From a phage, in sequence record PX246731.1: a DNA stretch of 64,000 nucleotides; one strand, written 5' to 3'. Both the position numbers and the translations under genes were made by a program. Under the pieces are notes generated by a model. That model saw only the letters and a list, made by a program, of their open reading frames with translations. It searched no databases and was not told the DNA's origin. The first letter of the stretch is position 1. Each line of letters starts with the position of its first letter. This document shows positions 1-57,037 of this stretch, piece by piece.

Positions 1-90
1 TGGTGTGGCTGGGGCTACACCCTTACACTCAACTAGCCCCCCCGGTATGTTGACGGTGTAGCCACTACCCTACCCCACCTTACACGTTAC

Positions 91-105
91 ACATGCTCCG
101 CATGT
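91..105 (+). promoter_or_regulatory. N4-type vRNAP early promoter hairpin (6-bp stem ACATGC/GCATGT, 3-nt loop TCC)
   Basis: Inverted repeat with 3-nt loop; template-strand loop GGA; followed by ttatgga; same architecture recurs at 927 and 1187; upstream of first early ORF. Confidence 0.55.
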
Positions 106-147
106 TATGGACATGTCGTCCTATCATCAACTATTGGAGCTATCATC

Positions 148-471
148 ATGACTACTCAAGCTACTGTACGTATGACCGCAGGAACTTTACTTGGTACTGT
201 TAACTCAGCTGCTACTACTGTTGCAGATACATTTAGTACTGCAACTAAAGCAGTAGGTATGCTTAATTCATATGTAAGTACTATGGCAGAGAAACAAGCC
301 ATTCGTACTAAATTAGAAATGCATACCTTTGTTAATAAACTGGCAGAGGAAACAGCTATGACTGAGACTCTGCGTAAGAAAAGTATTGAGGAATTCTGCA
401 AGGATTCAGAGAACGCTCGTATCTATAACGCAGAATATTCCAAAGTAATTGACATCCTGACTAAAGACTAA
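148..471 (+). CDS. hypothetical early protein (107 aa)
   Basis: ORF with ATG start, followed by intrinsic terminator at 479-505. Confidence 0.6.
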   Translation: MTTQATVRMTAGTLLGTVNSAATTVADTFSTATKAVGMLNSYVSTMAEKQAIRTKLEMHTFVNKLAEETAMTETLRKKSIEEFCKDSENARIYNAEYSKVIDILTKD

Positions 472-478
472 ACCACTT

Positions 479-505
479 AGGAGACTCTTCGGAGTCTCCT
501 GTTTT
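479..505 (+). terminator. rho-independent terminator (GGAGACTC-TTCG-GAGTCTCC + T-tract)
   Basis: Perfect 8-9 bp stem with UUCG tetraloop followed by TGTTTT. Confidence 0.75.
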
Positions 506-561
506 GAACATTAGATAGATAGTCAAAAGTAGATAACTATCTACTTTAAGGAAAGAAAATC

Positions 562-921
562 ATGACTAAATTCCGTTGTATCAAAGGTTCTGTTGCCGTA
601 CCTGTTGGAACAATTATCGTAGGAGAATTGGAAGGAGAACGTATCCGTCTTACCGAGGATTCTACTGTCAGAGATTCTGACAACAATCCTTACTTTGTAG
701 AAGGAGAAATGGTTCCACTAACTGGTTATGTATGGCAATGGGAATCCTGTGAGGGAGAACCAGATAAGGAAGAACTACTGGAACGCTTTGAAGTTGCAGT
801 AGATGTTCTTGCAACCTATGAAAGAGACATCCTTGAATATGGTGAGTCAGATATTGACCACCCCAAAGCAGAGCAAGAGTATGAATCTGCTAAGGCAGAA
901 TTGCTCAAACGTTTGTCTTAA
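562..921 (+). CDS. hypothetical early protein (119 aa)
   Basis: ORF preceded by AAGGAAAG RBS-like sequence. Confidence 0.6.
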   Translation: MTKFRCIKGSVAVPVGTIIVGELEGERIRLTEDSTVRDSDNNPYFVEGEMVPLTGYVWQWESCEGEPDKEELLERFEVAVDVLATYERDILEYGESDIDHPKAEQEYESAKAELLKRLS

Positions 922-926
922 AAACC

Positions 927-941
927 AGAAGCTCCGCTTCT
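927..941 (+). promoter_or_regulatory. N4-type vRNAP early promoter hairpin (AGAAGC-TCC-GCTTCT)
   Basis: 6-bp stem, 3-nt loop; reverse complement GAAGCGGAGCTTC resembles the N4 P2 hairpin core as I recall it; preceded by AAAACC and followed by tattgga as at 1187. Confidence 0.65.
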
Positions 942-965
942 ATTGGATACAATCAGGAGACAGTC

Positions 966-1181
966 ATGAACGTAGAAAATATCCGTATAATTGAGAATTG
1001 CTTTAGCAATAAACCTGTAGACCTCAACAACGCAAGAAGGTCTACTGATAAAGAGTATGGAGAGTTTCTATCCTTACTAGATGAATATCGTATGCAAGGG
1101 CATGTTGAATTACATGCCTATCTGCATAACTCAGGCTACTTCATGGATAAACTGGAAACTAAAACAGGCTGCCCATTCTGA
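966..1181 (+). CDS. hypothetical early protein (71 aa)
   Basis: ORF immediately downstream of promoter hairpin. Confidence 0.55.
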   Translation: MNVENIRIIENCFSNKPVDLNNARRSTDKEYGEFLSLLDEYRMQGHVELHAYLHNSGYFMDKLETKTGCPF

Positions 1182-1186
1182 AAACC

Positions 1187-1203
1187 AAGATGCTCCGCAT
1201 CTT
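1187..1203 (+). promoter_or_regulatory. N4-type vRNAP early promoter hairpin (AAGATGC-TCC-GCATCTT)
   Basis: 7-bp stem, 3-nt TCC loop, preceded by AAAACC and followed by tatgga; third copy of the motif. Confidence 0.65.
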
Positions 1204-1309
1204 ATGGATGATGTAAATGCATCCACTAATCATTGAACTTTTATCCTTTTGTTTGGGTGTTCTCACCGACGAGTTCACCCGTAAATCACATAAATCTGGA
1301 GAGTACAAA

Positions 1310-1690
1310 ATGGCTATTCAAAAATTCACTTTCGGTCAATCTAACGCTGCTGCTTCTACTGCTAAAGCTGATAAACCAAAAGCTCAGTTCTGGCTGAATA
1401 TTGGTTATGTAGCTAACGAAGGCTCTGATGATGAGAAATTCATCTCTCTGCCTACTGGTATTCCACTGGATACTCAGGAACCGCTGCCTACTAATAGCAG
1501 CAATGCTGACTTCCGTGCTATGCGTTGTGCACAGAACGACTTGCTGGAACAGTTAATTGCATATGCTCAGAACCTGGAACCAGGTGAAGAAGGTATCATT
1601 AACCTGCAAGTTCAACTTCGTCGTGTGAAAGCAGAGGCTGCTGACATTCCAGCAGACGAGAATAAATATGCTCGTAAACTGACTTTCTAA
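1310..1690 (+). CDS. hypothetical early protein (126 aa; alternative start 1217)
   Basis: Internal ATG at 1310 has GGAG RBS 8 nt upstream; ATG at 1217 lacks an RBS. Confidence 0.55.
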
Positions 1691-1699
1691 TCAATCACT

Positions 1700-1728
1700 A
1701 GACTCCCTTCGGGGAGTCTTTTATTTTT
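1700..1728 (+). terminator. rho-independent terminator (AGACTCCC-TTCG-GGGAGTCT + T-tract)
   Basis: 8-bp stem, UUCG tetraloop, TTTATTTTT. Confidence 0.8.
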
Positions 1729-1831
1729 AACTAGACGATAAGCTATTTCTACTTTTTGAGTATCTTTAGACGAAGGGTACTGAAACAGTAACCAGATAGA
1801 TATAGATTTATATTAGAAGAGGATATGTACT

Positions 1832-2074
1832 ATGTCTGTATACGAATTAGGCTATTTAATATCTGTTGCTACATGGTTGTGCATCTTCTATGTAGCCTAC
1901 CGAGTAAGATTCATTGTACTGAACTTAGTTAAGTGGGTAGTCACTAAGGCTATCCTTATTGCTAAATTACCAGTTGTATTCATTAAGTGTCTGTTTGCTT
2001 CCATCATAGCTAAAGAGGTGCGTAAGCAACTATGGGCTAAGGAAGCAGAAGACTATGTTAAGAGGAACCAGTGA
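1832..2074 (+). CDS. small membrane protein (80 aa)
   Basis: Hydrophobic N-terminal half; ORF in plus-strand operon. Confidence 0.5.
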   Translation: MSVYELGYLISVATWLCIFYVAYRVRFIVLNLVKWVVTKAILIAKLPVVFIKCLFASIIAKEVRKQLWAKEAEDYVKRNQ

Positions 2075-2220
2075 TGAATTATTCAGAATTGTGGCTTAAG
2101 TTTTATGAAGATTGGCTTAGTGCTGTATCTGGTAGACGCACCGAAGGTGATATGAACCGGGCAAAGGAATTTGCAGATAATTGTATAAAGTCACTGAAGG
2201 AATCGGATGATGTTCACTGA
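2074..2220 (+). CDS. small hypothetical protein (48 aa)
   Basis: ATG overlapping upstream stop (TGATG); below the 60-aa ORF-track cutoff; fills gap in plus-strand operon. Confidence 0.35.
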   Translation: MNYSELWLKFYEDWLSAVSGRRTEGDMNRAKEFADNCIKSLKESDDVH

Positions 2221-2383
2221 CATAGAATCTGCTATTGAAGAAGCTATGTACCGTATGACCAGTGGTCCTCAGATAAGGCACTATGGTCTGGTACAGAAAG
2301 GTCATCTCATTGCTGTACGTATTGTACGTAACAGTAACCCTCAACGTTTTATGTGGACAACTAAATCATGCGTAAGTCATTAA
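2207..2383 (+). CDS. small hypothetical protein (58 aa)
   Basis: Open frame read by eye from ATGATG at 2207; overlaps neighbours by a few codons. Confidence 0.35.
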   Translation: MMFTDIESAIEEAMYRMTSGPQIRHYGLVQKGHLIAVRIVRNSNPQRFMWTTKSCVSH

Positions 2384-2499
2384 TCATGGGAACTAAAGCT
2401 GACGTACAAAAGATGAAAGAGCGTTTGGCTGCTCAGAAACAAACATCTGAACCAGTACGTAAGATTGTTACCTTCAATCATCCAATATTAGGAAACTAA
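2368..2499 (+). CDS. small hypothetical protein (43 aa)
   Basis: ATG at 2368, stop TAA at 2497-2499 directly before next ATG at 2502. Confidence 0.3.
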   Translation: MRKSLIMGTKADVQKMKERLAAQKQTSEPVRKIVTFNHPILGN

Positions 2500-2501
2500 T
2501 C

Positions 2502-2714
2502 ATGTATTTCGTAATCTTTGTAGCACTAATGTATCTAAACGTTTGGCTCACTAATGTAGCAGGTAATATTACTAAAACCTTTGTCACTAATAATGATGCC
2601 AGAGGTTTTGCAATATTTGGTTATGTTACTGCATTAACCAAGGGATTGAGCATAGGCTATGGCTTATGGTTCATATACTATTGTGTAGTCAATTTCCCGT
2701 ATTCATTTATATGA
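2502..2714 (+). CDS. small membrane protein (70 aa)
   Basis: Two hydrophobic segments; ATG start. Confidence 0.5.
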   Translation: MYFVIFVALMYLNVWLTNVAGNITKTFVTNNDARGFAIFGYVTALTKGLSIGYGLWFIYYCVVNFPYSFI

Positions 2715-2773
2715 ACTGGCCTATCACATTAGCCATGTTTGTACTATTAGCCCTTGGTGCATTAGTAGAACTG

Positions 2774-2806
2774 GGAGTCCTCCATTAGGAGGCTCCTATT
2801 TTTTAT
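2774..2806 (+). terminator. rho-independent terminator
   Basis: GGAGTCCTCC-ATTA-GGAGGCTCC hairpin followed by TATTTTTTATT. Confidence 0.7.
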
Positions 2807-2847
2807 TCTTGAATAGTTAGATATGTATTTAAATAGGAGAAATAACC

Positions 2848-3165
2848 TTGAATGAAATTGTTTGTATACTTCCTCAATCAGCTAAGATAGCTGACCGGAA
2901 TATACGTATTCACTTACCATTCCCATTAAGCAATCCATTCGCTCGTAATGAAAGAACCACAGTAGAAGATATAGAGGTAGCTTATGAAGCTTACCTTCGT
3001 AATCGTCTTATTAGTGGTGACAAGCTAATTACAGCAGAGATGGAAAGGATTGCTTCCTTTGTAACAGATAGTACAGGTAAGCCTGTTGGCTTAATTGGTA
3101 CTGAATCTGACGTTAACGTTATTCGTAAAATACTAATGGAGGCACTAAGTGAACAACCTCAGTGA
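2848..3165 (+). CDS. hypothetical protein (105 aa, TTG start)
   Basis: AGGAGA RBS 8 nt upstream of TTG. Confidence 0.5.
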   Translation: MNEIVCILPQSAKIADRNIRIHLPFPLSNPFARNERTTVEDIEVAYEAYLRNRLISGDKLITAEMERIASFVTDSTGKPVGLIGTESDVNVIRKILMEALSEQPQ

Positions 3166-3382
3166 TGTAATTGTAGGTAATGAAATATTCGTTGACCGTA
3201 AAGGTTATGCACGAATTAAACTAAAGGGTACTAATAGAACTATTGTTCGTAAGGTGTATTCTAAACCATTTAGTAATTTCTCTATTGATGAAGTACGCAT
3301 TAATAACGAGATGTACTTCATAGATAGTAAAGTATCCATATGCCATACAGACGGTAAGACCTCACTTGAATATACACATTAA
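3149..3382 (+). CDS. hypothetical protein (77 aa)
   Basis: ORF overlapping upstream gene end, operon-like packing. Confidence 0.5.
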   Translation: MNNLSDVIVGNEIFVDRKGYARIKLKGTNRTIVRKVYSKPFSNFSIDEVRINNEMYFIDSKVSICHTDGKTSLEYTH

Positions 3383-3394
3383 GGAGTAAGCAAA

Positions 3395-3616
3395 ATGCTG
3401 TTCAGCACTAATTATGGTATTTGCCCGATTTGCAATAAAGGAAGAGGAGTTGCTAATCATAAGAAGTGTAGTCGTATTCTACAGAAACGACGGAACCAGA
3501 AAGAATGGGATAAGATATTGGAAAACCAACACAAAGATGAGTTCAAGAAGACGGCTGTTAAAGCATCTACTCAGCTTATTCGTCGTACTAACTTTATAGA
3601 AGGTTATCAGAAATGA
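3395..3616 (+). CDS. hypothetical Cys-containing small protein (73 aa)
   Basis: CPICNKG...KKC motif suggests a zinc ribbon; GGAG RBS upstream. Confidence 0.5.
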   Translation: MLFSTNYGICPICNKGRGVANHKKCSRILQKRRNQKEWDKILENQHKDEFKKTAVKASTQLIRRTNFIEGYQK

Positions 3617-3969
3617 AACTAATCGTAGCTGGTGGAAGAGACTTCGTAAATACCCAAGTAATGATTACAGTATTAATGGATTTAGTGGAGAAGGGTAAGA
3701 TTGACCCTAATCCAGAATTAGTATGTGGTATGGCTCGTGGAGCAGATATGCTTGCATACAGCCTATGGGCTAATAACAAAATGCCTATTCATAATTTCCC
3801 AGCTAACTGGGATAAATATGGAAAATCTGCTGGTTATAGGCGTAATCAGGAAATGGGTGAATTTGCAGATGCTGCTGTATGCTTTTGGGATGGTAATTCC
3901 AAAGGAACCAAGCACATGATTGATATCATGAATAGGCTTAATAAACCCGTATATGTTGTGAGGTACTAA
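3613..3969 (+). CDS. SLOG-family protein (DUF2493/YspA-like)
   Basis: IVAGGRDF ... GMARGAD ... YRRNQEM ... FWDGNSKGTKHMI resembles DUF2493 SLOG-domain motifs as I recall them. Confidence 0.6.
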   Translation: MKLIVAGGRDFVNTQVMITVLMDLVEKGKIDPNPELVCGMARGADMLAYSLWANNKMPIHNFPANWDKYGKSAGYRRNQEMGEFADAAVCFWDGNSKGTKHMIDIMNRLNKPVYVVRY

Positions 3970-4224
3970 ATGATTATTACATATCCTACAGGCAAAAATG
4001 TGGAATATATGGGACATACTATCCAAGTACCACATTGGGTTAAGTATATAGCTCTATATACTCGACAGTATAAGAGTGCTAATACCTCGCTAATAGGATT
4101 CTCTAAGAAGCCTAAGCTAACAGAAAACAATATCTGGGTATCCTCTGGGAGACAAGAAGAAATTGGTTTCTGTGATTTGAGTATTGTCGATAATAACATC
4201 TATGGGACATTGAGAAAGGTATGA
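3970..4224 (+). CDS. hypothetical protein (84 aa)
   Basis: ORF in operon. Confidence 0.45.
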   Translation: MIITYPTGKNVEYMGHTIQVPHWVKYIALYTRQYKSANTSLIGFSKKPKLTENNIWVSSGRQEEIGFCDLSIVDNNIYGTLRKV

Positions 4225-4541
4225 AAACTATTCTAGTAGTTCATGATTCTACATTTACTGATGTAGATAAGATGATGCGTAATATTGATTATGTATCTCA
4301 AACAAGCCAAGCATTCAATGAAGAGTTTATCTTGTACTGTATTGCTGAATCACCACTGGTTCCTATCCTTAAGGAATCAGGACTACCCTTCTCTACAGAG
4401 AACTTCCCGGAAGAACCAGACTATGTAATCTCATTTATATATGACTTACACGATGGCTCTGAAACAAGTGAATTAGCTATGAACCAGTGGCGTAGCAAAC
4501 GTCCTGTGTTCGCATTTCAGGTACTTAAACCAAAGGATTAA
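4221..4541 (+). CDS. hypothetical protein (106 aa)
   Basis: ORF with overlapping start/stop (ATGA). Confidence 0.5.
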   Translation: MKTILVVHDSTFTDVDKMMRNIDYVSQTSQAFNEEFILYCIAESPLVPILKESGLPFSTENFPEEPDYVISFIYDLHDGSETSELAMNQWRSKRPVFAFQVLKPKD

Positions 4542-4543
4542 AT

Positions 4544-4894
4544 ATGAAAGAAATCTTAGTATTCACTACCAATGTACTTGGGCAGCATAACAATGCTGCT
4601 GCCAAATTAGCTTATAAGAAACACGGTGCTCGCTGGGGCATGGCCTATGGTCATTATGGTAATAGCTTTGCCATTCCAGTAAAGGATGGCTATGGTAACC
4701 GAATTAAAGTGAGTGCTATCTATGGCTTCATTGAAGGCTTTATTGCCTATGCATCTTCTAATCCACAGTGGGATTTCAAAGTCATGAGTAATGACTATTT
4801 GGACCCATACCAGTTTATCAATGTTACTGGCAACGTACTGTTACCAGAAGCATGGCGTAAACACTTAGGTGATGCTTACAACTACTGGAGCTAA
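4544..4894 (+). CDS. hypothetical protein (116 aa)
   Basis: ORF; no family recognised by eye. Confidence 0.5.
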   Translation: MKEILVFTTNVLGQHNNAAAKLAYKKHGARWGMAYGHYGNSFAIPVKDGYGNRIKVSAIYGFIEGFIAYASSNPQWDFKVMSNDYLDPYQFINVTGNVLLPEAWRKHLGDAYNYWS

Positions 4895-4896
4895 TA

Positions 4897-5157
4897 ATGA
4901 CTTATGAAGAATTATGGTCTGCTCAAGTCAGAGCCAGAGCACTCACACGACATGACATCTATTGTGCATTACAGAACGAATTAAAGAGTCGTACTAAGCT
5001 GGGTCACATATCTGGCTTAGTTAAAATACCTATGACTAGCCTAGTCTGGCCTTACCAGAAGAAAAGTAATGAGTTTAATGGTAATGGTCTGCATGTACGT
5101 ATCGACTACATTGGTAATGAAAATAGTATTCGTATTACCTTTTGGACTAAGCGTTAG
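4897..5157 (+). CDS. hypothetical protein (86 aa)
   Basis: ORF. Confidence 0.5.
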   Translation: MTYEELWSAQVRARALTRHDIYCALQNELKSRTKLGHISGLVKIPMTSLVWPYQKKSNEFNGNGLHVRIDYIGNENSIRITFWTKR

Positions 5158-5162
5158 GTAAT

Positions 5163-5177
5163 AGCTGCTCCGCAGCT
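5163..5177 (+). promoter_or_regulatory. hairpin AGCTGC-TCC-GCAGCT: fourth vRNAP-type promoter hairpin or intrinsic terminator
   Basis: Same 3-nt TCC loop and 6-bp stem as the three early promoter hairpins, but followed by TTTT and placed after a gene end; lies directly upstream of the RNAP II genes. Confidence 0.4.
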
Positions 5178-5210
5178 TTTGGTTATTAATCACATTTAGG
5201 AGAATAAGCG

Positions 5211-6029
5211 ATGTACTCATCTATTGAACATCAGAAGCAACTCGAAAAACTATTCAATAAAAATCAGCTCTTGCCTCGTATGAGGAAGGAATTCGAGGAC
5301 TCCAAAGAAATTGACTTTAAGGCATTCGCTGCCTATTTAGAAATTGATTATAAGCTGCTCATTGATGCAATGGTGCAGATTGCCCTACATAAACGTGCTG
5401 ACATTCAGACTATGATTGGCTCTCTCATGAGTCACTCAGATGATGCTCAGTATATCGCTGACTGTCTGTATAAGATGGCAGAGAATGACTGCTTCAACTA
5501 TGACCCTACCATCGACAAGTTCGGTGTTATTTATGAGATTAGTGAAGATGTACAGATGGAACTGGAAGCATTCCAGTATCCATTACCTATCGTAAGTGCT
5601 CCTAAACCTGTTAAGTGTAACCGTGATACTGGTTACTACGAGAGCAGAGGTAGCATCATCCTCAAGAAGAACCATCATGAGATGGATGTCTGTCTTGACC
5701 ACATCAACCGCATGAATAACCAACGTCTCTGTATTAACTGGGACGTTGCTAACTATGTAAAAGACTCCCGTCCTAACATGGATAAACCCAAAGAGGGTGA
5801 AACCCGTCAGGACTATGAGAAACGTGTCAAAGCCTTTGAAAAGTACAGCCGTACAGCTAAAGAAGTAATGGAGTTAGTGACCAAAGAAGGTAATAACTTC
5901 TCCTTGGCTCATCGTTACGATAAGAGAGGGCGTACATATGCCTGTGGTTACCACATCAACTATCAGGGAACCAGCTACAACAAAGCTGTACTTGAGTTCG
6001 CTGATAAGGAGTTAGTAAATGAAGACTAA
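5211..6029 (+). CDS. phage RNA polymerase II small subunit (N4 gp15-like, N-terminal half of a T7-like RNAP)
   Basis: 272 aa, close to the N4 gp15 size; paired with the following 405-aa ORF carrying the HDCF motif. Confidence 0.65.
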   Translation: MYSSIEHQKQLEKLFNKNQLLPRMRKEFEDSKEIDFKAFAAYLEIDYKLLIDAMVQIALHKRADIQTMIGSLMSHSDDAQYIADCLYKMAENDCFNYDPTIDKFGVIYEISEDVQMELEAFQYPLPIVSAPKPVKCNRDTGYYESRGSIILKKNHHEMDVCLDHINRMNNQRLCINWDVANYVKDSRPNMDKPKEGETRQDYEKRVKAFEKYSRTAKEVMELVTKEGNNFSLAHRYDKRGRTYACGYHINYQGTSYNKAVLEFADKELVNED

Positions 6030-6180
6030 CATTGGATCCTATGAGCTATGGGTTAATGAAGAGTGTATCTACTCAGGTACATATGTGAAGTGCTTATACT
6101 TTGAGAAGCTTTACAAGCTTCAAAACCCTGAGAGTAAAACCATTATTTATAAACTATCTGCCGACGTAGTAACCGCCTAA
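6019..6180 (+). CDS. small hypothetical protein (53 aa) between the RNAP II subunit genes
   Basis: ATG with AAGGAG RBS 7 nt upstream; open frame read by eye; below ORF-track cutoff. Confidence 0.4.
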   Translation: MKTNIGSYELWVNEECIYSGTYVKCLYFEKLYKLQNPESKTIIYKLSADVVTA

Positions 6181-6236
6181 CTATCCAATAAGCAGGCTCT
6201 CCATAGTGGGGAGCCAAGAAGCAAAAGGAACATAAA

Positions 6237-7454
6237 ATGCAACTGTTAACCGCTAAACAATACCTGAAAGTAGATATTGCGAACTCATATGGCTTAGATA
6301 AAAAGACGTGGGATGAACGTATTGCCTGGTTCGATGAGAACGAAGCTAATCTGCTTAATCTGGTAGATGAGGCTGAAGATTCTGCTCTGTTCTTTGCTGG
6401 TATAAATGCATGGAATGATATGAAAGCTGGTAAGCCTATCGGTTATGCCGTAGCTCTGGATGCTACATCCTCTGGCTTGCAGTTACTGGCCTGTCTGACT
6501 GGTGACCGTTCTGCTGCTGAACTGTGTAATGTAGTTAATTACATGGGAGAGAATGGTAAGCCATTACGTCGTGATGCTTATACAGTTATCTATCACAAGA
6601 TGCTGGACATCCTTGGCGAAGCATCACGTATTAAACGCAGTGACACTAAGCAGGCAGTTATGACTGCATTCTACGGTTCAGAAGCCAAGCCTAAAGAAGT
6701 ATTCGGTGAAGGTATTCGTCTCAAGACTTTTGAGAATGTAATGGAAACTGTTGCTAGTGGTCCTTGGGCACTTAACAAGTTCTTACTGCAATGTGGTAAC
6801 CCGGATGCTAACCGTTACATATGGATACTGCCTGACAACTTCCATGCTGTCATTAAGGTAATGGTTCCAGAAGTACAGACTGTTAACTTCTTAGGTAAGC
6901 CATTCGACATCACTCGTATGGTTCAGGGTACTGAAGAGAAGACCCGTATGCTCTCTGCTAACATCACCCACTCTATTGATGGGATGGTGGTACGTGAGAT
7001 GCTGCGTCGTTGTAATTTCGACCGTGAATTAGTGGAAGCTGTGCGAGAACTCTGCGATGAAGGTCCATCAGAATATGGGGAGATTGCAGGTAACCTGGAG
7101 AAGGTACAGGAGTTGTGGAGCCATTATGAAAAGTCTGGCTTCTTATCCGTATCAATCCTGGACTATCTTGACCCATGTACTATTGCTTATGTAGACCGTC
7201 AGGTAGTAGCAGATATGATTGATACTATGCCTAAGAAGCCATTCCCTATAATGACTGTGCATGACTGCTTCCGTTGTCATCCTAATTACGGTAATGACCT
7301 GCGTCGTCAGTACAATCAGATTCTGTCTGACATCGCTAAGAGTGACTTACTGGGCTTCATCCTGTCTCAGGTATTAGGACAAGAGTTCTCTGCTGGTAAG
7401 CTGGATGACAACCTCTGGCAGGACATTCTTGAAACAGACTATGCATTAAGTTAA
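6237..7454 (+). CDS. phage RNA polymerase II large subunit (N4 gp16-like, T7-like RNAP catalytic half)
   Basis: 405 aa; TVHDCFRCHP resembles T7 RNAP motif C (HDSF). Confidence 0.7.
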   Translation: MQLLTAKQYLKVDIANSYGLDKKTWDERIAWFDENEANLLNLVDEAEDSALFFAGINAWNDMKAGKPIGYAVALDATSSGLQLLACLTGDRSAAELCNVVNYMGENGKPLRRDAYTVIYHKMLDILGEASRIKRSDTKQAVMTAFYGSEAKPKEVFGEGIRLKTFENVMETVASGPWALNKFLLQCGNPDANRYIWILPDNFHAVIKVMVPEVQTVNFLGKPFDITRMVQGTEEKTRMLSANITHSIDGMVVREMLRRCNFDRELVEAVRELCDEGPSEYGEIAGNLEKVQELWSHYEKSGFLSVSILDYLDPCTIAYVDRQVVADMIDTMPKKPFPIMTVHDCFRCHPNYGNDLRRQYNQILSDIAKSDLLGFILSQVLGQEFSAGKLDDNLWQDILETDYALS

Positions 7455-55439: not shown

Positions 55440-56660
55440 TTAAAGACTACCCGGTACTGGGAGTTTAGCGAAATCTTCATCACTCATAGCGAGTGGGTTT
55501 ACAATAGGTGTTGCTTTACGTGTAGCAGCCCGATTAAGGGAAGCTGCTTTAGCTTGCTCGTTGTTAGCCAGAGTCTGCTTAGGTTGTGCTACACGCACTA
55601 CCGGCTGAACTGCTGGTTTAACTGCTTGTACCGGTTCAGGCTTAGCCACTTGGTTAAATGCTCCCTGTTGTGCAAGGAGGTTACCAACGTAGTTATAAGC
55701 CTGAATGAACGGAGTACCTACCGGAATCTGACCTAACACCTGAAGACGATTCACTTCATTAGCAATGGTGTCATAAATACCATTCTCACGTTGTTCGTGA
55801 ATAGTGTGGAGTAGACCACGATTCTGATAAAGAGCATCTTTACTGGCAGCATCCCATGTCGAGCTAATAACACCTAATGTAGCTTGTCCTTCTTGAGTAG
55901 ACTTTAAGTCGTCAATTTCGGTTGCAAAATCTGCTTCGGTGTCTGTAACACGGTGTTTGCCACCCTGGTAGTTAATTTCCTCTTCTGGATTAAAGTCCAG
56001 AGGATCTGTACCAGAGTCTTTCAACAACTTTTTAATGGCTTCAGGATTCTTCTTATCCAGGTCAATAAGGAAAGAAAGTTTTTCCTCATCCATTAAACCG
56101 TTGTTTTGTAACATCAGCATTACCTTACGGTACGGCTGAAGTTCTTGCATCTTACGAGTATAATTAGCACCCATCTGCATCAGGCTAATGGCCTCCTCCG
56201 GTGAACGGGGAGTAATCATTTTGCCGTTAGCTTTAAAAGGAGCCATCAACTTCTCATAACCTTCCTTATAGTTGAAGTCAGCAGGCAGACCTTCAGACTG
56301 TTTACCTTCTTCTTTCTGTTCCTGGCCTGGTTCAGTAGTAGAAGGTTCAGCTTCAGTAATCGGCTTACCGTTACTATCAACTTCTGTGTCAACAACTTTA
56401 TCATCAACTTTATCAGAAGTTAAAGAATTTGCTGAATCATCTTCAACTGGGTCAGTTTCAGTGGAGGTTTCTTCGGTTGGTAGGTCTTCAACAGCAGGGG
56501 GGTCAACTTCTTCATCAGGAGTCTGTACGCCGTTGGTTTCTGGGTTGTTCTGAGTGGAAGAATCTTCCTCAGCAATAATTGCTGGGGCTTCCATATTCAG
56601 AATCTCATCATCCGACATTGCGAGAATGTCGGAAGCTGTGGTTGCAGCTTCCGTAGTCAT
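55440..56660 (-). CDS. scaffolding-like acidic protein (406 aa)
   Basis: Highly acidic, low-complexity N-terminal half; position between portal and MCP. Confidence 0.45.
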   Translation of the reverse strand: MTTEAATTASDILAMSDDEILNMEAPAIIAEEDSSTQNNPETNGVQTPDEEVDPPAVEDLPTEETSTETDPVEDDSANSLTSDKVDDKVVDTEVDSNGKPITEAEPSTTEPGQEQKEEGKQSEGLPADFNYKEGYEKLMAPFKANGKMITPRSPEEAISLMQMGANYTRKMQELQPYRKVMLMLQNNGLMDEEKLSFLIDLDKKNPEAIKKLLKDSGTDPLDFNPEEEINYQGGKHRVTDTEADFATEIDDLKSTQEGQATLGVISSTWDAASKDALYQNRGLLHTIHEQRENGIYDTIANEVNRLQVLGQIPVGTPFIQAYNYVGNLLAQQGAFNQVAKPEPVQAVKPAVQPVVRVAQPKQTLANNEQAKAASLNRAATRKATPIVNPLAMSDEDFAKLPVPGSL

Positions 56661-56679
56661 AGGAAATATCTCCGGTTAA

Positions 56680-57024
56680 TTATTCGTCTTCAGGTTCAGC
56701 ACGAACTGCATCGAGTTCTTCTTCTACCTGTAGAATAACGTCAGCTTCGTTTTCACCCATACGAATGGCGAGGTCGAGCCAACGACGTAGATGACCAGCA
56801 GCTTGAGCCATGTTCAGTGCGTCTGCACGGTTATTAGGTTCAAGCAGTGGGTCACCAGACTCCTGCACGTAACGTGCACAGTCTTCCACACAGAACTGGC
56901 GAAGGATTACTTTACGGAACAGTGGGTTCTCCAGAAGTTTACGTACATCTTCTGCGTGTGCAACTGCACCTTTAGCAGCTTCCAGTCGATGTTCCAGTCC
57001 TGCAATTGTTGATTCTTTACTCAT
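56680..57024 (-). CDS. hypothetical protein (114 aa)
   Basis: ORF between portal and scaffold-like genes. Confidence 0.5.
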   Translation of the reverse strand: MSKESTIAGLEHRLEAAKGAVAHAEDVRKLLENPLFRKVILRQFCVEDCARYVQESGDPLLEPNNRADALNMAQAAGHLRRWLDLAIRMGENEADVILQVEEELDAVRAEPEDE

Positions 57025-57037
57025 GTGAAGGTCTGCC

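Follow-up and report, generated by a model that had tools for sequence, protein, structure and literature searches.

The early region of an N4-like coliphage carries a small gene, at positions 3613-3969 of the window (the whole 64,000-nucleotide stretch of record PX246731.1 that was analyzed), which raises the question of what a SLOG domain standing on its own might do for a phage. The original prediction took its product for a SLOG-family (DUF2493-like) protein that could bind or sequester a nucleotide signal, possibly in counter-defence, or act in nucleotide metabolism. The counter-defence idea for viral SLOG domains is already published (Iyer/Aravind 2021, 2022), in the form of a prediction that the YAcAr/YpsA-like SLOG domains of viruses act on ADP-ribose derivatives generated by the host (PMC7824862, PMC9503650). 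Searching the literature, we found no experimental characterization of the DUF2493/YAcAr/PF10686 family; our statements on SLOG clades draw on PMC9503650, PMC7824862, and PMC6459960.

A genuine gene in a variable early block

The phage belongs with the G7C/EC1-UPM-like group of N4-like coliphages (Gamaleyavirus). The ORF lies at exactly the predicted coordinates, is on the plus strand, and encodes 118 aa. It begins with ATG and has its stop codon within the coordinates, its start overlaps the stop of the preceding ORF (ATGA at 3613-3616), and the following ORF begins one base after its own stop. Gp11 of Escherichia phage EC1-UPM (YP_009598285) is 99.2% identical, has the same length with a single difference (N95K), and occupies the same position between the same neighbors in a genome with 94% DNA identity; further orthologs occur in Gamaleyavirus phages. 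The SLOG gene is a genuine gene on which purifying selection acts, and its product is an ordinary member of a catalogued, already known family with an annotated ortholog at 99% identity. The GenBank names for EC1-UPM gp11 and the orthologs are 'GTP-binding domain', 'DNA processing protein DprA', and 'hypothetical protein'. We rejected the GTP-binding label for the SLOG protein and its orthologs because a Walker A motif is absent.

Placement in the early region rests on synteny with N4 gp1-gp16, and the proposed run of small ORFs at 3395-5157 was recovered as six abutting or overlapping plus-strand ORFs inside a larger block (Table 1). Terminator-like hairpins at 2779-2792 and 5163-5177 bracket this block, and sigma70-like promoters are depleted in the variable early block that holds the SLOG gene. 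The part at 3149-4224 is missing from phage N4: a tblastn search against N4 recovered the gp9-, gp11-, and gp14-like genes, and found neither the SLOG gene nor phrog_1972.

Two other ORFs of the block weakly resemble enzymes that recur elsewhere with the family. The N4 gp9-like ORF matches Pfam DUF4326 under threshold (E = 0.044) and, by BLASTP, the protein from phage 24-32N that is a genuine DUF4326 member (E = 4e-7 across 52 aa); judged by sequence, its product is a possible functional partner of the SLOG protein. The N4 gp14-like ORF lacks a conserved 8-residue segment when aligned with N4 gp14 and IMG/VR homologs, and its product is possibly Macro-like, the hhalign match to Macro reaching E = 0.03 only. 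Such weak look-alikes are all that the window offers; a clear partner of the Macro, NADAR, or DUF4326 type is absent. The ORFs at 4221-4541 and 4544-4894 were also considered as extra SLOG domains and rejected, with hhalign probabilities below 1% against the family profile. In ΦDruSM1, a phrog_1972 member precedes the SLOG gene of that phage by two genes; BLAST found no similarity between it and the phrog_1972 product of our phage, and the link exists at the PHROG level only.

Table 1. Positions in the window of the SLOG gene, its conserved codons, and neighboring features
Feature	Position	Strand	Description
Early accessory block	2848..5157	+	Eight tightly packed ORFs including the SLOG gene (ORF map)
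N4 gp9-like ORF	2848..3165	+	74% identical to N4 gp9; weak DUF4326 resemblance
Shine-Dalgarno-like AGAAGG	3598..3603	+	9 nt 5' of the SLOG ATG; sequence reading, putative
SLOG gene	3613..3969	+	118 aa, 13.4 kDa, pI 8.9; standalone YAcAr-family SLOG domain
G7-G8-R9 codons	3631..3639	+	Glycine-rich loop after strand 1; GGR, DprA equivalent GSR
G39-M-A-R-G-A-D45 codons	3727..3747	+	GxARGxD loop; DprA counterpart SGLARGID
P63-A-N-W66 ... R77-N78 region codons	3799..3846	+	Conserved family motif
W92-D-G-N-S96-K-G98-T99-K-H101-M102 codons	3886..3918	+	Loop after strand 4; LOG PGGxGTxxE counterpart
phrog_1972 ORF	3970..4224	+	Directly downstream of the SLOG gene
N4 gp14-like A1S_2505-family ORF	4544..4894	+	NCBIfam NF049995, E = 6e-24

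Family assignment, fold, and conserved loops

Profile, fold, and conserved residues all agree with the SLOG/DUF2493-like assignment. The Pfam check suggested with that assignment places the protein inside PF10686: it scores 39.8 bits, where the gathering threshold is 28.2 (E = 4e-10), and its residues 1-69 match model positions 1-66 of 66. PF10686 is YAcAr, the 'YspA, cpYpsA-related SLOG family' previously called DUF2493 (Pfam). The protein also matches PHROG 289 (E = 3e-31); NCBIfam and PADLOC gave zero matches, a single-sequence search of the PDB returned only chance matches to designed repeat proteins, and a PDB profile search found DprA as the sole family, at a marginal E = 0.07. In a 90%-clustered database 4,637 homologs were found at E <= 1e-3, and PF10686 is present in 120 of 120 among the matches listed. 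Clustering at 50% identity divides the family into 16,073 clusters; it is present in 836 of 50,697 phage records and extends to archaeal and giant eukaryotic viruses.

The confident AlphaFold model, run with an alignment (a single-sequence AF2 run gave pLDDT 63), has the fold of the SLOG superfamily, a Rossmann-like three-layer alpha/beta arrangement with a five-stranded parallel sheet. Its best fold matches are YpsA, ShosA/DprA, LOG-like proteins, and the SLOG domain of ThsA. The latter belongs to the host defence system Thoeris, where it is joined to a SIR2 effector and acts as a sensor that binds 3'cADPR, whereas the SLOG protein, 14% identical to it, is standalone and viral. In the model, G7-G8-R9 comes after strand E2-7, and W66, R77, and N78 lie inside helix H66-84, after strand E59-61.

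The SLOG protein has all the residues that are invariant or near-invariant in the family (G7, R9, G39, A41, G43, D45, A64, W66, A73, G74, R77, N78, M81, W92, S96, G98, T99, and M102). Four loops are conserved family-wide: G7-G8-R9, G39-x-A-x-G43-x-D45, W66...R77-N78, and S96-x-G98-T99. We counted residues in an alignment of 76 diverse family sequences with 40-55% identity to the SLOG protein. The first loop has G7 in 76/76 and R9 in 75/76 sequences, with G (39) or S (35) at position 8, and in hhalign its partner in E. coli Smf is VGSR. In the second loop G43 and D45 are invariant and G39 and A41 are each found in 75/76; this loop aligns with SGLARGID of Smf (hhalign E = 3e-4) and with S. pneumoniae DprA, and its counterpart in the YpsA clade is the GxD/E motif (PMC6459960). 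W66, A73, R77, and N78 are invariant; R77 aligns weakly with R241 in PpnN from E. coli, the Arg of the LOG/PpnN RK motif ahead of strand 4 (hhalign E = 0.11), and R77-N78 corresponds to RRN of Smf by motif reading rather than by structural superposition. In the strand-4 loop, at which S. pneumoniae DprA LDGLSDGCHHLI is aligned, S96 is present in 74/76, G98 in 76/76, T99 in 70/76, H101 in 55/76 (N in 10, D in 5), and M102 in 69/76 sequences.

By alignment and motif reading, the family-conserved residues (GGR, GxARGxD, RRN, and SxGT) appear to be the set common to DprA. The protein lacks the PGGxGTxxE motif of LOG/PpnN with its catalytic Glu: the position of this Glu is occupied by Met in the SLOG protein and in 69/76 family members, and the strand-4 loop (WDGNSKGTKHM) is two residues longer than in LOG/PpnN. 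The exchange of Glu for a conserved Met, along with invariant residues that appear to be the DprA set, would favor ligand recognition (capture, or presentation to a partner enzyme) or non-LOG chemistry over a LOG-type N-glycosidase.

Fusion partners, neighborhoods, and a homolog with a phenotype

We scanned 43 multi-domain proteins from the 150 closest 50%-identity representatives and found DUF4326 (11), NADAR (5), DUF488 or DUF488-N3a (6), and Macro (3) as fusion partners, all of them ADP-ribose or ribose-phosphate processing domains. None of the 43 contained a nuclease or helicase family, and 9 had weak PF02481 matches (best 5e-5). Similar partners are encoded as separate genes: in the sister phages pSb-1 and 24-32N the SLOG gene is followed, at a distance of 3-4 genes, by a genuine DUF4326 gene (in 24-32N its product matches at E = 9.5e-23), Kuravirus SU10 encodes Macro two genes upstream, and N4 has DUF4326 (gp12) in the same cassette and lacks the SLOG gene.

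The wider surroundings are less uniform. The ±2-gene neighborhoods of 72 IMG/VR loci are heterogeneous (278 proteins in 199 clusters) and hold mostly replication and nucleotide-metabolism genes. Neither these neighborhoods nor contig look-ups showed a dominant neighbor family, and at the 72 loci no conserved neighbor ties the SLOG domain to CBASS, Thoeris, or Pycsar. Scanning 150 neighbor cluster representatives gave DUF4326 twice and NADAR, an NMN transporter, and a Tad2-like protein once each. Other members of the family are found with DNA-handling proteins, namely in a HelB helicase-DUF2493 fusion in ICP1 (10.1101/671271), in fusions to DciA (10.1101/2022.01.24.477630), and in a Sbno-Toprim-DUF2493 triad on conjugative plasmids.

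The only phenotype, on AVAST type III, belongs to ORF83 of ΦDruSM1, a distant homolog, and would bear on the SLOG protein by analogy. ORF83 traces to Ojima et al. and is listed in EVADES as an anti-AVAST type III protein. Deletion of ORF83 lowers plating on AVAST type III cells, the sensitizing deletions also include that of the ATP-dependent DNA ligase, and deletion of the adjacent ORF84 has a stronger effect; the ORF83 phenotype comes from a deletion, for which the accessible text reports no complementation (10.1101/2024.04.14.589459). In the accessible parts of the sources we found no report of AVAST/Avs type III as a nucleotide-signaling system, which complicates a counter-defence role aimed at a nucleotide signal. 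CAjan gp82 (Seuratvirus), 98.5% identical to ORF83, matches PF10686 (E = 2e-18), and its similarity to the SLOG protein (BLASTP E = 4e-8, 29% identity) establishes the homology of the latter to ORF83. ORF83 carries R89, N90, T112, and D114, the residues cited in 10.1101/2025.06.06.658234. ORF83/gp82 and the SLOG protein share PF10686, PHROG 289, and the motifs GGR, GxxxGxD, PAxW, and YRN, and are small standalone proteins encoded in accessory regions. They differ by a 15-residue insert preceding the RN motif and by the beta4 loop, which is a LOG-like PGGAGTMD in ORF83/gp82 and WDGNSKGTKH in the SLOG protein.

Candidate functions of the SLOG protein

The explanation that we prefer, and hold tentatively, is that the SLOG protein is a ribose-5'-phosphate/ADP-ribose-binding module made early and acting in counter-defence with partner enzymes. 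The four conserved loops would make up the SLOG pocket, the site at which DprA, LOG, and ThsA bind a nucleoside-5'-phosphate or ADP-ribose moiety. The predicted ligand is probably of the ADP-ribose type, either a free NAD-derived molecule or an ADP-ribosyl/ribose-phosphate adduct on nucleic acid. The protein would probably partner rhodanese-phosphatase-like (DUF4326/DUF488), NADAR, or Macro enzymes, and together they would neutralize a host defence or the damage caused by it. We count in favor of this explanation the invariance of the pocket residues across 76 sequences, the fusions, the DUF4326 and Macro neighbors, the early-block position, the published prediction, and the ORF83 genetics. 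Against it we count the heterogeneity of the IMG/VR neighborhoods, the lack of a clear partner in the window, a sole phenotype that comes from a 29%-identical homolog with a different beta4 loop, and the other members fused to or adjoining DNA-handling proteins (ICP1 HelB, the plasmid Toprim/Sbno block, and DciA). Counter-defence directed at a nucleotide signal is further complicated by the DprA-like residue set, the loss of the LOG Glu, and the lack of a CBASS, Thoeris, or Pycsar neighbor.

The DNA contexts, including replication-module neighbors, lend themselves to another explanation, which we regard as unlikely though worth serious attention: a minimal DprA-like ssDNA-binding protein, whose two conserved Arg residues would bind phage ssDNA or DNA ends and so protect DNA or feed recombination/repair, conferring tolerance of nuclease-type defences. 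The motifs GGR/GSR, SGxARGxD, RRN, and SxG[ST] match VGSR, SGLARGID, RRNR, and RSGS of Smf, the match to S. pneumoniae DprA takes in LDGLSDGCHH, and DprA is both the one PDB family found by profile and, with ShosA, among the best fold matches. The first Arg that ssDNA binding requires, R52 in HpDprA and R139 in ShosA (PMC12961424), lies in the GSR motif and would correspond to R9 in the SLOG protein; the second Arg, HpDprA R143/ShosA R234 (PMC12961424), is plausibly R77, a correspondence read from motifs and not from structural superposition. The presence of both the ligase and ORF83 among the sensitizing deletions would also fit damage repair (10.1101/2024.04.14.589459). However, the SLOG protein has 118 aa compared to 288-374 aa in the full-length DprA chains; its Rossmann domain falls short of that in DprA/Smf and ShosA by about 100 residues, and it lacks their extended Rossmann fold, their SAM and C-terminal domains, and any known dimer or RecA interface. 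It shows neither the PF02481 match nor the full-length Rossmann domain flanked by SAM or DML1 domains that mark DprA/Smf; in Pfam, PF10686 alone matches at E <= 0.1. ORF83 likewise lacks the dimerization and RecA-binding residues of DprA, and its predicted interaction with RecA is poor (ipTM 0.18; EVADES). The identified fusion partners of the nearest relatives, moreover, are all ADP-ribose/ribose-phosphate enzymes and include no recombination proteins.

Both kinds of context would be accounted for if YAcAr SLOG domains were DprA-derived readers of ssDNA or DNA ends which, with DUF4326/DUF488, NADAR, and Macro, strip ADP-ribose or ribose-phosphate adducts off viral DNA, countering DarT-like or other NAD-dependent DNA-modifying defences and repairing nuclease damage. 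We offer this as speculation to which we give little credence. Such an adduct-removal system is uncharacterized to date; its parts are fused in many viruses and are separate neighboring genes in N4-like phages.

It is similarly improbable that the SLOG protein is a nucleotide-pool enzyme, an NMP/dNMP phosphoribohydrolase resembling LOG/PpnN that would alter host pools or supply phage nucleotide metabolism. AMP binding is predicted for ORF83 (AF3 ipTM 0.9; EVADES), among the neighbors in other phages are a nucleoside 2-deoxyribosyltransferase, a dNMP kinase, a ribonucleotide reductase, and a PnuC-like transporter, and guanylate kinase recurs, as the label 'guanylate kinase' on a matching stretch of Clostridium phage c-st, as 'putative guanylate kinase' for a fold match from a Pseudomonas phage, and in fusions (PMC9503650). 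Set against these are the Met at the Glu position and the H/N/D variation next to it, a non-significant PpnN alignment, and LOG Pfam families that are unmatched.

The leading idea of the original prediction, a non-catalytic sponge for one host immune signal nucleotide (e.g., a cADPR isomer) that would act as Tad1, Tad2, or Acb2 do, fares worse still and seems to us hardly likely: the frequent hydrolase fusions and DNA-related contexts fit it poorly, the sole phenotype is against Avs type III, and a family distributed so widely, archaeal and giant eukaryotic viruses included, speaks against any one bacterial signal. A YpsA-like host-takeover factor, which might for instance block division of the host cell upon binding a ligand, is most improbable, as YpsA (178 aa) is 12% identical to the SLOG protein, its link to gpsB and cell division is specific to Firmicutes, and divisome pointers are absent from the fusion and neighborhood data.

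The YAcAr family is among the commonest uncharacterized viral domains, and no member has a measured activity. The copy in our phage contributes nothing unique to the question of family function; the gene is a handy representative, a clean standalone domain of 118 aa in a tractable E. coli phage, and its relatives form a natural presence/absence series with SLOG only, DUF4326 only, or both. If the DprA-like reading is true, the family would serve phage DNA repair as a minimal reader of ssDNA; if the ADP-ribose link of our preferred explanation is true, viruses would have in it a widespread means of answering NAD-based immunity.

Family assignment and distribution

The window protein scores 39.8 bits against Pfam PF10686 (gathering score 28.2), the YAcAr family ('YspA, cpYpsA-related SLOG family', formerly DUF2493), and matches PHROG 289 at E = 3e-31. 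These two matches confirm as written the original prediction of a DUF2493-like SLOG protein, and the Pfam search that it had proposed as a check places the protein inside the SLOG family. Searches of NCBIfam and PADLOC with the protein gave no match. The 'GTP-binding domain' label carried by PHROG 289 and by GenBank orthologs (e.g., NC_041906 2990-3346) was rejected, as the protein has no Walker A motif and its fold is SLOG, not P-loop. Other labels found in records on the matching stretch are 'DprA', 'phosphoribosyl transferase', 'guanylate kinase', and 'threonine-tRNA ligase'.

The family is large, with 4,637 homologs in a 90%-clustered database; when the 50%-identity representatives were searched exhaustively, the clusters numbered 16,073 at E <= 1e-3 and 4,510 at E <= 1e-10. 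Using tblastn, homologs were detected in 836 of 50,697 phage records, including phages of Mycobacterium, Vibrio, Escherichia, Klebsiella, Erwinia, Campylobacter, and Bacillus as well as jumbo phages; just 83 of 72,556 plasmid records gave a match. In BFVD, fold matches also came from archaeal tailed viruses and from Marseille-, Pandora- and Pithoviruses. The finding is an ordinary one: an ortholog with 99% identity is already annotated, and the Pfam family is catalogued.

The gene and its mosaic early cassette

The SLOG gene lies in a densely packed run of ORFs bounded by terminator-like hairpins. By sequence reading, a Shine-Dalgarno-like AGAAGG is located 9 nt 5' of its start; the start codon shares bases with the stop of the ORF before it (ATGA), and the next ORF opens one base past the SLOG stop codon. 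Pairwise Nei-Gojobori comparison with five orthologs gave dN/dS values of 0.02-0.39, indicative of purifying selection; the SLOG gene is a real, functional gene. Within positions 1-7000 of the window, sigma70-like promoter matches are depleted (4 versus 21.1 ± 4.8 expected from shuffles) and terminator-like hairpins enriched (9 versus 3.6 ± 2.2), which fits transcription by phage RNA polymerases and not by host sigma70. N4 gp15 and gp16 (RNAP II) are early gene products, and synteny with N4 suggests that the SLOG gene would also be early.

Features of the early region around the SLOG gene
Feature	Position	Strand	Details
Terminator-like hairpins bounding the ORF run	2779-2792 and 5163-5177		
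Densely packed ORF run containing the SLOG gene	2848-5157	+	ORF map
N4 gp9 homolog	2848-3165		74%; tblastn vs first 12 kb of N4
SLOG gene	3613..3969	+	ATG start, 118 codons + stop
phrog_1972 ORF	3970-4224		Directly 3' of the SLOG gene
N4 gp11 homolog	4221-4541		79%; tblastn vs first 12 kb of N4
N4 gp14 homolog	4544-4894		45%; tblastn vs first 12 kb of N4
N4 gp15-type RNA polymerase subunit	5211-6029		272 aa; downstream of the SLOG gene

The SLOG gene region matches 64 records of G7C-like N4-like phages (Schitoviridae, Gamaleyavirus), with 94% DNA identity to Escherichia phage EC1-UPM, whose ortholog of the protein is 99.2% identical. The first 12 kb of N4 contain homologs of flanking ORFs but, by tblastn, no SLOG gene, which therefore belongs to a block (3149-4224) that is absent from N4 and is flanked, in the early region, by the gp9-like and gp11-like genes. 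The content of this early cassette varies in mosaic fashion among N4-like phages (window 3149-4224 versus 2805-3602 of L099, the extracted N4 stretch): four ORFs of the window and EC1-UPM, among them the SLOG gene and the phrog_1972 ORF, are absent from N4, and both lack N4 gp12 (DUF4326) and gp13.

A phrog_1972 protein is also encoded two genes upstream of the SLOG gene in the unrelated Seuratvirus ΦDruSM1 (stretch L004, 1678-1980), and the best match given for it in the Dru_SM1 record is the G7C-like phage St11Ph5. BLAST found no direct similarity between the window and ΦDruSM1 phrog_1972 proteins, so that the link exists only at the PHROG level. The gp14-like ORF is of the A1S_2505 family and lacks the 8-residue segment RVGCGLAG of N4 gp14; three IMG/VR homologs likewise have a segment at this position. 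The family motifs VFGSNxxGxHGxGAA and GCGxxG are reminiscent of Macro domains, and in some GenBank records the ORF is named 'ADP-ribosylglycohydrolase'; hhalign against two Macro sequences reached only E = 0.03.

Fusion partners, gene neighbours and a distant homolog

A viral role of the family has already been predicted in print. Iyer, Aravind and colleagues catalogued YAcAr SLOG domains in jumbo phages, noted fusions with Macro, NADAR, and DUF4326 and sporadic ones with helicase, HNH, exonuclease, and guanylate kinase, and described viral SLOG domains as experimentally uncharacterised. Their prediction was that these domains target ADP-ribose derivatives made by the host, either sensing them or, as enzymes, cleaving the 1'-ribosyl N-glycosidic bond (PMC7824862, PMC9503650). 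Our literature searches on the family found no biochemical study. A genetic phenotype is already known for one distant member: in the work of Ojima et al. (10.1101/2024.04.14.589459), 73 ORFs of ΦDruSM1 were deleted, and mutants of ORF55 (DNA ligase), ORF72, ORF83 (annotated 'Smf/DprA Rossmann'), and ORF84 showed reduced plating on AVAST type III cells. EVADES lists ORF83 as anti-Avs, with AMP binding predicted via R89, N90, T112, and D114 (10.1101/2025.06.06.658234). We identified ORF83 as 56640-57032 of Dru_SM1 record PP596835 (PHROG 289), an identification resting on these four residue positions and the annotation since the locus tag is numbered 95, not 83. CAjan gp82 is 98.5% identical to the Dru_SM1 protein, shares all four residues, matches PF10686 at E = 2e-18, and has 29% identity with the window protein (E = 4e-8).

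Fusions give the clearest context signal. Among the 150 nearest 50%-identity representatives, the 43 of at least 170 aa, a length that extends past a single domain, were scanned: DUF4326 was fused in 11, DUF488 or DUF488-N3a in six, NADAR in five, and Macro in three. No further partner family recurred in these 43, except for weak DprA-model matches on the SLOG domain itself.

The SLOG-DUF4326 pairing, fused elsewhere, occurs as separate genes in the N4-like lineage. Phages pSb-1 and 24-32N carry both, with DUF4326 three to four genes downstream of the SLOG gene (24-32N protein, E = 9.5e-23 on Pfam DUF4326); N4 has DUF4326 (gp12) and no SLOG gene; in the window and EC1-UPM the SLOG gene is present and DUF4326 is represented only by a weak look-alike, the gp9 homolog. 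This ORF matches DUF4326 below threshold (Pfam E = 0.044) and the genuine 24-32N protein over 52 aa (BLASTP E = 4e-7); it may represent a diverged or shortened version of DUF4326, the family most often fused to SLOG.

Gene neighbourhoods outside the N4-like lineage were not informative. Within two genes on either side at 72 IMG/VR loci we collected 278 proteins in 199 clusters; among the 150 scanned representatives Pfam found mainly replication and nucleotide-metabolism genes, with sporadic DUF4326 (2), NADAR, NMN transporter, and Tad2-like proteins. The last two were isolated cases, each in one SLOG-adjacent protein (PF11195, Thoeris anti-defence 2, for the Tad2-like one; L015-L094, the IMG/VR loci). 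Individual orders were nucleoside deoxyribosyltransferase, PnuC, SLOG, RNR (Proteus P59); deoxyribosyltransferase, hypothetical gene, SLOG, hydrolase, small ORF, endonuclease VII (mycobacteriophage Pumbaa); and Macro, sigma factor, SLOG, dNMP kinase (SU10). In ICP1 the SF1B helicase HelB carries the domain at its C-terminal end (10.1101/671271). A DUF2493 protein of 307-313 aa is encoded on conjugative plasmids of alphaproteobacteria behind a strawberry-notch-like NTPase and a Toprim protein, which places the domain in a conserved setting of DNA processing. This gene order is shared by pRLG203 (L097 1-5354) and pCHQ1 (L098 1-5348), from different alphaproteobacterial orders, and in both a DUF736 gene lies a little further downstream, a few genes away.

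The conserved pocket and its proposed function

AlphaFold2 performed poorly from the single sequence (pLDDT 63); with an 87-sequence alignment it returned a confident model (pLDDT 96.3, pTM 0.90; b1-a1-b2-a2-b3-a3-b4-a4-b5), which Foldseek matched to ShosA (E = 2e-5) and then to DprAs. A profile search of PDB sequences reached only DprA (E = 0.07), with no solved structure for any family member. In an alignment of 76 diverse sequences (40-55% identical to the query except CAjan gp82, at 32%), G7, R9, G39, A41, G43, D45, A64, W66, G70, A73, G74, R77, N78, M81, W92, G94, S96, G98, T99, and M102 are invariant or nearly so, and the window protein carries every one. The protein consists of a compact SLOG domain whose family-specific pocket is intact; its gene evolves under purifying selection and lies in a variable part of the early region in a virulent phage.

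Tentatively, and at slightly less than even confidence, we favour a protein that would bind a ribose-5'-phosphate or ADP-ribose moiety and act with DUF4326/DUF488, NADAR or Macro-type enzymes, so that host defence, or its consequences, would be blunted. The family retains the residue set of DprA and lacks the catalytic Glu of LOG, and for this reason we lean towards ligand recognition, or chemistry unlike LOG, over LOG-type hydrolysis. A minimal DprA-like binder of ssDNA or DNA ends that helps repair or recombination is a less probable candidate. Read against E. coli Smf, the conserved family positions would correspond to the DprA motifs (VGSR, SGLARGID, RRNR, and RSGS), and LDGLSDGCHHLI of S. 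pneumoniae DprA aligns with WDGNSKGTKHMI of the window protein. Of the ssDNA-binding arginines of HpDprA (R52, R143) and ShosA (R139, R234) (PMC12961424), the first falls in the GSR motif (R9 here) and the second plausibly in RRN (R77), the latter by motif reading and not superposition. Such a binder would also suit the contexts involving DNA and the shared phenotype of the ΦDruSM1 ligase mutant, which speak for it, whereas the small size of the protein and the fusion spectrum speak against it.

An NMP phosphoribohydrolase like LOG/PpnN appears unlikely. The Arg before strand 4 of E. coli PpnN would correspond to R77 and the GT of PGGVGTAEE to G98-T99, but the position of the catalytic Glu is M102, a Met in 69 of the 76 sequences; the preceding residue varies (H in 55, N in 10, D in 5). 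These motif comparisons suggest that the pocket for the ribose-5'-phosphate moiety, common to DprA, LOG, and ThsA, is kept and the LOG catalytic acid is not. A pure signal sponge is more doubtful still, and a YpsA-like host-takeover factor highly improbable.

Speculatively, the preferred ligand-binding role and the DprA-like one could be unified in a domain that recognises, on behalf of partner hydrolases, ssDNA carrying ADP-ribose or ribose-phosphate modifications. For work on the function of the family, the window copy has no particular advantage other than residing in a tractable coliphage.
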